From IMG/VR virus record IMGVR_UViG_2693429557_000012: DNA of 6,465 nucleotides; one strand, given 5' to 3'. This document shows positions 3,766-4,076 of this stretch, in pieces. The translations under genes and the position numbers were made by a program. The notes under the pieces are model-generated. The model made no database searches. It had not been told where the DNA came from and saw only the letters and a program-made list of their open reading frames with translations. Source of the stretch: a virus (taxonomy: Duplodnaviria; Heunggongvirae; Uroviricota; Caudoviricetes). Every line of letters starts with the position of its first letter. Position 1 is the stretch's first letter.

Positions 3766-3842
3766 GGCCCTTTAGCTCAGTTGGTCAGAGCGAGCGACTC
3801 ATAATCGCCAGGTCGCTGGTTCAAGTCCAGCAAGGGCCACCA
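3766..3842 (+). tRNA. ileZ: tRNA-Ile (anticodon CAU, ileX/ileZ-like, reads AUA)
   Basis: Hand-folded cloverleaf: acceptor GGCCCTT/AAGGGCC, anticodon loop CTCATAA, T arm GCTGG-TTCAAGT-CCAGC, encoded CCA. Near-identical to E. coli ileX as recalled. C4-G69 and C5-G68 fit Ile2 rather than Met identity. Confidence 0.85.
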
Positions 3843-3843
3843 A

Positions 3844-3920
3844 CCACCACTAGCTCATCCGGATAGAGCATCAACCTTCTAAGTTGACGGTGCGAGGTTC
3901 GAGTCCTCGGTGGTGGGCCA
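3844..3920 (+). tRNA. argN: tRNA-Arg (anticodon UCU, reads AGA)
   Basis: Cloverleaf with anticodon loop CTTCTAA, T arm CGAGG-TTCGAGT-CCTCG, acceptor CCACCAC/GTGGTGG with an unusual C1:G72 pair, encoded CCA. Begins 1 nt after the previous tRNA. Confidence 0.8.
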
Positions 3921-3922
3921 GC

Positions 3923-3998
3923 GCCGACTTAGCTCAGCAGGCAGAGCAACTGACTTGTAATCAGTAGGTCACCAGTTCGATTCCGGTAGTCGGCACCA
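3923..3998 (+). tRNA. tRNA-Thr (anticodon UGU, reads ACA)
   Basis: Acceptor GCCGACT/AGTCGGC, anticodon stem ACTGA/TCAGT with loop CTTGTAA, encoded CCA, ending GGCACCA as in Thr tRNAs. One A-C mismatch in the T stem. Confidence 0.75.
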
Positions 3999-4001
3999 TA
4001 T

Positions 4002-4076
4002 GCGGGCATCGTATAATGGCTATTACCTCAGCCTTCCAAGCTGATGATGCGGGTTCGATTCCCGCTGCCCGCTCCA
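4002..4076 (+). tRNA. glyT: tRNA-Gly (anticodon UCC, glyT-like, reads GGA)
   Basis: GCGGGCATCGTATAATGGCTATTACCTCAGCCTTCCAAGCTGATGATGCGGGTTCGATTCCCGCTGCCCGCTCCA matches my recollection of E. coli glyT; anticodon loop CTTCCAA. Confidence 0.85.

Follow-up and report, generated by a model that had tools for sequence, protein, structure and literature searches.

A four-tRNA array downstream of Q in a lambda-like prophage, related to the ileZ-argN-argO cassette of Stx phages

The DNA considered here is a 6,465-nucleotide stretch of a caudoviricete virus record (IMG/VR record IMGVR_UViG_2693429557_000012), referred to below as the window. It contains a compact array of four tRNA genes (tRNA-Ile2, tRNA-Arg, tRNA-Thr and tRNA-Gly) on the plus strand at 3766-4076, followed 1.6 kb further on by a second, identical array at 5414-5724. 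The array reads as a modular, compositional variant of the ileZ-argN-argO cassette of Stx lambdoid phages, in which the first two positions are retained and the third has been replaced. The prophage is lambda-like and its host genome is probably Shigella or enteroinvasive Escherichia coli (EIEC), an assignment based on an IS600 sequence within the window and on 99-100% matches to pieces of the Shigella flexneri SFBU1023 genome, where their arrangement is different. Close but differently arranged copies of window pieces also occur in a genome titled E. coli ECMA0423.

The tRNA genes were called by ARAGORN and scored against the Rfam tRNA model RF00005, which has a gathering score of 29. The first array comprises an AUA-decoding tRNA-Ile2 of the ileX/ileZ family with anticodon CAU (3766-3842), a tRNA-Arg with anticodon UCU, built on the scaffold of phage argN and decoding AGA/AGG (3844-3920), a thrU-type tRNA-Thr with anticodon UGU, decoding ACA (3923-3998), and a glyT-identical tRNA-Gly with anticodon UCC, decoding GGA/GGG (4002-4076). 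All lie on the plus strand, and each was supported by ARAGORN, Rfam and alignment to reference tRNAs. The RF00005 scores are 70.5 bits for Ile, 56.4 for Arg, 69.8 for Thr and 64.9 for Gly, with E-values of 1e-10 to 1e-14. All eight tRNA genes of the window are intact, were recovered by ARAGORN and exceed the gathering score (56.4-70.5 bits). An earlier note on this DNA, made from the sequence alone, had described four tightly packed tRNAs with these anticodons, and ARAGORN and Rfam both bear it out: the genes are separated by A (3843, 1 nt), GC (3921-3922, 2 nt) and TAT (3999-4001, 3 nt), the 3' CCA is encoded in all four, and no score falls to pseudogene level. The anticodon loops are 7 nt long with U33 and a purine at position 37 (CUCAUAA, CUUCUAA, CUUGUAA and CUUCCAA for Ile, Arg, Thr and Gly), and the T loops are UUCAAGU, UUCGAGU, UUCGAUU and UUCGAUU in the same order. 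Permissive Rfam scans of the array flanks returned only below-threshold, evidently spurious matches to plastid, leader and miRNA families.

ARAGORN's label for the CAU gene is Met. Its identity is 96.1% to Stx-phage ileZ (3 differences), 89.6% to ileX, 69.2% to metT and 61.5% to metV, and an identical gene carries the NCBI RefSeq annotation tRNA-Ile. The acceptor stem, GGCCCUU/AAGGGCC, provides C4:G69, C5:G68 and A73, which are determinants for TilS and IleRS. We therefore assign the gene, from its sequence, to tRNA-Ile2 of the ileX/ileZ type, in which C34 would be expected to be modified to lysidine. The tRNA-Arg gene differs at 13 positions from Stx-phage argN, at 23 from host argU and at 31 from argO; it shares one scaffold with argN and has the anticodon UCU where argN has UCG. 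It carries A20, C35, U36 and G73, the ArgRS identity set. The tRNA-Thr gene differs from K-12 thrU by two D-loop substitutions and keeps G1:C72, C2:G71, G35 and U36, and the tRNA-Gly gene is identical to K-12 glyT (75/75). The identity-element roles invoked here for Ile, Arg and Thr come from established work on tRNA identity.

Several structural departures were noted in these genes. The acceptor stem of tRNA-Arg is CCACCAC/GUGGUGG, hence its C1:G72 pair is real, and the Rfam alignment places an A27·C43 mismatch in the anticodon stem of tRNA-Ile and an A52·C62 mismatch in the T stem of tRNA-Thr. The earlier note had read all three correctly; a U13·U22 mismatch in the D stem of tRNA-Gly, also evident in the Rfam alignment, was absent from its list and is glyT's own. 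Its suggestion that these are unusual features of the locus does not stand. Of 37 distinct argN-scaffold sequences, 36 have C1:G72; Stx-phage ileZ likewise has A27·C43 (K-12 ileX has G27·U43 there), and A52·C62 is already found in thrU. Because C1:G72 is near-universal on the argN scaffold and the mismatches are inherited from ileZ and thrU, we interpret them as family traits of working tRNAs, indicating neither decay nor a new kind of tRNA. The cloverleaf of the scaffold is itself well maintained: across the 37 sequences, pairing holds in 96.8% of pair cells and drops to 29-54% on sliding the partners, and at six pairs both bases change. Two pairing-preserving double changes, A3:U70 and A52:U64, occur in the window Arg allele alone among these sequences. 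A pseudogene reading of the C1:G72 pair and the A-C mismatches was considered and rejected on the high scores, the inheritance of the mismatches and the family-wide occurrence of C1:G72. Capture of a host operon fragment with its flanks was likewise rejected, as no thrU or glyT flanking sequence is kept; thrU and glyT as carried by the phage have exactly the length of mature tRNAs, without host flank (3999-4001, 4077, 5725).

The closest known system is the ileZ-argN-argO cassette, reportedly carried by Stx lambdoid phages such as 933W and annotated in AP012530.1. Like the window array, this cassette lies downstream of Q and upstream of late and lysis genes, has a conserved promoter-like element upstream, is tightly packed and encodes the CCA ends. 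Its first gene differs from that of the window at only three positions and its second shares the scaffold with C1:G72; the first two window genes are ~90% identical over 155 nt to those of many Stx phages. The window array differs in the UCU anticodon of its second gene in place of UCG, in the absence of argO, for which a thrU-like and a glyT-identical gene are substituted, in its spacers of 1-3 nt (1-13 nt in the Stx-phage cassette) and in that no stx follows. The earlier note had set the array apart from ileZ-argN-argO. It is indeed not literally that trio, since argO as third gene is the one defining property that the array lacks; with an ileZ-type first gene and an argN-scaffold second gene, however, it is a variant of the trio in which only argO has been replaced.

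Other comparisons place the array in a wider context. The Shigella/Salmonella lambdoid and P22-like phages SfI, Sf6, ST64T and 21, compared by gene content, similarly have tRNA genes downstream of Q, Thr(UGU) among them, but these are only Asn(GUU) and/or Thr(UGU) (PMC3636060). With the K-12 thrU-tyrU-glyT-thrT-tufB operon the array shares a Gly gene identical to glyT, a Thr gene identical to thrU except for two D-loop bases, and the A52·C62 mismatch. It differs in lacking the host flanks, tyrU and thrT, and its Thr and Gly genes are 3 nt apart, whereas tyrU and 116 nt lie between those of the operon. The tRNA cluster of T4 is also compact, with very short spacers, processing by host RNase P and 3' trimming, and mostly minor isoacceptors, but T4 is a virulent phage, its tRNA sequences are unrelated and several of its tRNAs have no encoded CCA. 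RefSeq and phage records already annotate this array, and the wider phenomenon of tRNA genes after Q whose anticodons suit the codons preferred by the phage has been published. Literature searches for ileZ, argN and argO and for an Ile-Arg-Thr-Gly prophage array found no paper on this four-gene form in the library searched.

An approximate census of arrays adjoining ileZ-type genes, covering 120 viral contigs and additional fetched loci (numbered with the prefix L below), shows the window array to be a recurring form within a modular family of cassettes that has many members. The Stx-type Ile-Arg(UCG)-Arg(UCU) arrangement was commonest (~57), followed by Ile and Arg(UCU) separated by ~100 nt (~25), Ile-Lys(UUU)-Thr-Gly (~12) and Ile-Arg(UCU)-Thr-Gly, a minority form with ~10 examples including the window's two; a few rarer shuffles completed the set. 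An Arg-Thr segment identical to that of the window was found in nine complete E. coli genomes, and in those inspected it was annotated within an Ile-Arg-Thr-Gly array. The sister form, in which an argN-scaffold gene adjoins thrU, was found in 629 of 5426 complete E. coli genomes (~12%), and most of the carriers listed have the anticodon UUU in the second slot, annotated as tRNA-Lys.

Additional variation was observed among these relatives. The argN scaffold in slot 2 bears UCG, UCU or UUU depending on the prophage (L002 3078-3154, L004 3078-3153, L117, L124, L125 and others). Its UUU form almost always has C33 in place of the near-universal U33, L016 being a UUU gene with normal U33. In other prophages, many slot-2 genes show clear damage, such as a broken T loop, an odd anticodon loop or a truncation. 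A Thr(UGU) allele whose anticodon stem has GT->TC in its 3' strand, a change that leaves a 3-bp stem and removes one CNG motif, is present in two E. coli prophages (L005 3270-3345, L010 9415-9490) and 12 viral contigs (L141-L152), in Ile-Lys-Thr-Gly, Ile-Arg-Thr-Gly, Ile-Thr-Arg-Gly and Thr-Gly-alone contexts. In E. coli RMDEC332 (L005 3349-3419), a gene annotated as tRNA-Val is a copy of glyT in which TAC replaces TCC as the anticodon, the loop has one more change and 4 nt are deleted from the 3' acceptor strand; it is probably a pseudogene.

With respect to transcription, the array is preceded by a gene for the late-gene antiterminator Q (2125-2532, plus strand; Pfam Phage_antitermQ, E-value 2.7e-52), located ~1.2 kb upstream in the same orientation. 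The window Q is 98% identical to the Q of the VL7S7 prophage and 82% identical to that of the CFSAN029787 prophage, both of which precede Ile-Arg-Thr-Gly arrays, and every complete related prophage examined (L001, L002, L005, L009, L010) has the array between Q and holin. Correspondence with L010 places the start of the window's holin gene near 6405, downstream of the second array. Immediately 5' of tRNA-Ile, a promoter-like element on the plus strand (3728-3765) consists of TTGCAG (3728-3733), a 17-nt spacing, TATTAT (3751-3756) and a 9-nt GC-rich stretch, tctgcctcc, extending up to the first nucleotide of the tRNA; stable-RNA promoters typically have such a GC-rich discriminator. Conservation among 44 distinct upstream sequences was highest at TTGC and TATTAT, with a variable spacer between them. 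Only 20 of the 44 passed a promoter count at fixed positions, the -35 hexamer TTGCAG matching the consensus at 3/6 positions, and the per-position conservation profile is the more informative measure. The conserved TTGC/TATTAT elements and the GC-rich discriminator directly upstream of tRNA-Ile together lead us to infer an autonomous promoter.

Further upstream, a plus-strand terminator-like hairpin (3652-3673) followed by a T run (3652-3680; terminator scan) ends 86 nt 5' of the array; in four related loci its stem is conserved and its loop variable. Directly 3' of Q, a promoter scan identified the promoter-like site TTGACC-18-TATATT (2537-2566, plus strand), followed on the same strand by an isrK-type short RNA (2573-2649; Rfam isrK, 77.5 bits) that contains a terminator-like hairpin at 2628-2644. 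The segment 2537-2649 may thus represent a PR'/tR'-like start of a late transcript able to read into the array.

The two arrays of the window belong to a perfect 909-bp direct duplication (3169-4077 = 4817-5725, both on the plus strand), hence the eight tRNA genes that the earlier note had counted. Copy 1 consists of the 3' part of an ORF6N gene, the terminator, the promoter-like element and the four tRNA genes. Copy 2, with tRNA genes at 5414-5490, 5492-5568, 5571-5646 and 5650-5724 (ARAGORN and Rfam), starts exactly at the end of a truncated IS600 element and ends 1 nt past tRNA-Gly. The intervening IS600 fragment (4259-4816, minus strand) is the 3' part of the element with a truncated orfB, recognized by its Pfam rve domains. 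It matches S. flexneri IS600 copies at 100% and is annotated as IS600 in related genomes. The second array is probably the product of an insertion-sequence (IS) rearrangement. Both copies stop one base after tRNA-Gly and are followed by unrelated sequences; the two downstream module types part one base past the Gly CCA, making the tRNA end a mosaic boundary.

This rearranged setting could suggest that the tRNA genes are inert passengers in a decaying, IS-ridden prophage and that the duplication arose as a side effect of rearrangement or as an artefact of assembly. Copy 2 directly adjoins the IS600 fragment, lysis genes are missing after copy 1, and damaged slot-2 genes are frequent in other prophages. 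Nevertheless, all eight genes of the window are intact and identical to alleles of other genomes and viral contigs, the Arg allele shows compensatory pair changes, and both copies retain an intact promoter-like element. We consider this reading highly improbable.

Codon usage was examined by comparing the CFSAN029787 prophage, which carries an identical array, with 45 core genes of the same strain. Of 59 synonymous codons ranked by enrichment in the prophage, ATA is second, AGA fifth, GGA sixth and ACA seventh; AGG, CGG, AAG and GGG rank first, third, eighth and ninth. For eight of the nine most enriched codons, a decoding tRNA exists in some member of the cassette family. The open reading frames of the window contain 12.3 ATA and 23.6 ACA per 1000 codons, compared with 3.9 and 8.4 in the host core genes. 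The earlier claim that the array decodes only rare codons holds for AUA and AGA: in the host core genes AGA is the second rarest codon (2.1 per 1000) and ATA the third rarest. It does not hold for ACA (~13th rarest) and GGA (8.8 per 1000, outside the 16 rarest of 61), which are only minor codons. A similar codon argument has been made for the tRNA-Thr(UGU) gene downstream of Q in Shigella phage SfI, in which ACA is over-used relative to S. flexneri (PMC3636060).

Taken together, the gene structures, identity elements, homology, position, conserved upstream element and codon bias make it probable that the array works as a stable-RNA cassette in a lambda-like prophage and supplies minor isoacceptors for translating AT-rich genes, those of the phage among them. 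That the tRNAs are expressed, processed, charged and beneficial is inferred from sequence, and the following sequence of events can be proposed. Transcription would start at the cassette's own sigma-70 promoter with its GC-rich discriminator just 5' of tRNA-Ile, and after induction Q-modified RNA polymerase would also transcribe the array, passing the upstream terminators. RNase P would cut the tetracistronic precursor at each 5' end, leaving trailers of 1-3 nt beyond the encoded CCA that exonucleases would trim. The tRNAs would then be handled by host enzymes, namely TilS followed by IleRS for tRNA-Ile2, and ArgRS, ThrRS and GlyRS for the others. The result would be a larger pool of four minor isoacceptors that have one or few gene copies and read AUA, AGA/AGG, ACA and GGA/GGG, codons more frequent in prophage genes than in host core genes.

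Several points weigh against this interpretation. The promoter is a consensus match with conservation that shared ancestry could partly explain. The codon enrichment is modest in the late genes (1.4-2.5 fold), and ATA is not significantly enriched there (p = 0.14); ACA and GGA are minor within their codon families, not truly rare. The codon comparison is also a correlation drawn from one related prophage and one 50-kb host sample. Moreover, the prophage is rearranged, with an IS600 fragment in place of lysis genes after copy 1, so that any gain for phage growth may have been lost here. Finally, a recent study of the P2 OLD nuclease argues that defence evasion is a main reason why phages carry tRNAs (PMC12445682).

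Applied to the window, that argument would mean that the cassette mainly makes good the loss of host tRNAs to defence systems that cut tRNAs in the lytic phase, such nucleases including P2 OLD (tRNA-Thr UGU), PARIS AriB (tRNA-Lys UUU) and Gifsy-1 HepS (tRNA-Thr, Ile and Ser). According to the OLD study, P2 OLD kills lambda-infected cells by cutting thrU-type tRNA-Thr(UGU) at paired CNG motifs of the anticodon stem; this tRNA, with the same anticodon as the window Thr, is its primary target, and resistant phage tRNA-Thr(UGU) genes provide rescue (PMC12445682). The window resembles that system in the UGU anticodon and in belonging to a lambda-like phage, the kind that OLD restricts. HepS, triggered by the siphovirus tail-tip protein J, cuts tRNA-Thr and tRNA-Ile (PMC13043305). 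Furthermore, sister alleles look like escape variants, including the Thr gene with a 3-bp stem and a lost CNG motif and the Lys(UUU) slot-2 gene with C33; the GT->TC Thr allele resembles the P2-OLD-resistant phage tRNA-Thr described there (PMC12445682). In the window Gly and in glyT, C28-A-G30 pairs with C40-U-G42 and is accompanied by A37, which by sequence reading is an OLD-substrate motif, and Gly is not mentioned in the main text of the OLD study (PMC12445682).

The alleles of the window, however, lack the feature that defines resistance, and for this reason we rate counter-defence as decidedly unlikely at this locus. The anticodon arm of the window Thr is identical to that of thrU, with both CNG motifs kept, and the window Gly is glyT itself; on these grounds, escape from P2 OLD was rejected as the primary role of the two genes. 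Anticodon-arm changes such as those of the resistant tRNA-Thr in the OLD study (PMC12445682), or of the T5 tRNA-Lys active against PARIS (PMC11464382), are found only in the sister alleles, and an extra host thrU reportedly protects little or not at all in the OLD experiments, resistance needing changes in the arm (PMC12445682). Codon enrichment, moreover, fits all four anticodons without reference to defence. To our knowledge, no nuclease singles out tRNA-Ile2 or tRNA-Arg(UCU) in such a context.

The multiplication of arrays in some genomes raises a further possibility, namely that Shigella and EIEC keep and multiply them as a domesticated "moron" which, expressed constitutively from its own promoter, would improve decoding of AUA, AGA, ACA and GGA in the AT-rich invasion plasmid and other acquired genes, irrespective of phage growth. 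Each of the nine complete genomes with the exact allele has 3-6 matching places, whereas carriers of the Lys form typically have 2. Four arrays, amounting to 16 prophage-borne tRNA genes, are present in S. flexneri SFBU1023, and one of these is orphaned between IS elements yet still called as four tRNA genes; the window itself has two arrays within a short distance. The array-bearing CFSAN029787 prophage also carries ipaH, the entry-region genes of the invasion plasmid pINV use ATA and AGA at 33.3 and 17.7 per 1000, far above the 3.9 and 2.1 of host core genes, and the promoter-like element is conserved and of stable-RNA type. Conversely, many related prophage remnants and IS600 rearrangement would account equally well for the multicopy state without selection, the pathotype of the nine genomes is presumptive, constitutive expression of the arrays is putative, and sister arrays are common in non-invasive E. 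coli (the 629 of 5426 genomes given above). A domesticated, host-level role is in our judgement unlikely. A more specific form of it is that Ile-Arg(UCU)-Thr-Gly is a self-promoted tRNA "moron" amplified in Shigella/EIEC, where a genome has 2-5 arrays, 2 kb of the window hold eight genes and calls persist in IS-flanked scraps, and that its constitutive expression would relieve an AUA/AGA bottleneck of the ~34% GC invasion plasmid. This proposal is doubtful; if true, the arrays would be virulence-supporting host genes rather than phage genes.

The orphaned SFBU1023 array (L135 4016-4325) is an Ile-Arg-Thr-Gly array flanked by two IS elements, with no Q or holin gene nearby, and ARAGORN calls its Thr gene 2 nt shorter than elsewhere. 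In E. coli CFSAN029787 (L139 6037-7679), the ipaH effector gene is frameshifted and lies beside tail-fibre genes, a locus of the Shigella/EIEC "ipaH island" type.

The remainder of the window also encodes DnaB and RusA and contains several RNA-like features. Between Q and the array, further Rfam matches were obtained to c4-a1b1 (2560-2612), C4 antisense RNA (2675-2758) and sRNA-Xcc1 (2892-2975), followed by an ORF6N antirepressor-like gene ending at 3576. The region 2537-2975 and the ORF6N gene form a P1/P7-type c4-ant module in the late-operon leader and resemble the isrK unit of Gifsy-1. Directly 3' of array copy 1, the segment 4083-4208 contains two strong hairpins (fold z-score -4.1), the second with a U run, which could terminate the cassette transcript or form a regulatory RNA ahead of the holin gene in L001-type prophages. 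The unannotated ~630 bp from array copy 2 to the holin gene contain a nearly perfect hairpin of ~27 bp (5843-5925; fold z-score -4.3), whose several G·U pairs make it specific to the plus-strand RNA. It gave only spurious miRNA-type matches in Rfam, and the region is absent from phage records.

In the preferred reading, as a supply of minor isoacceptors, the array is a routine accessory of a lambda-like prophage that matters little in itself and is useful mainly as context. The cassettes to which it belongs are modular, with slots swapped, a single scaffold bearing UCG, UCU or UUU, and a conserved promoter-like element of their own, and some of the sister alleles may be natural escape variants from tRNA-cutting defence systems. 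Through such prophages, Shigella and EIEC can gain at least a dozen extra genes for tRNAs reading AUA, AGA, ACA and GGA. If these genes are expressed in lysogens, the effective tRNA pool would be altered, and codon-based predictions for these pathogens would need adjusting.

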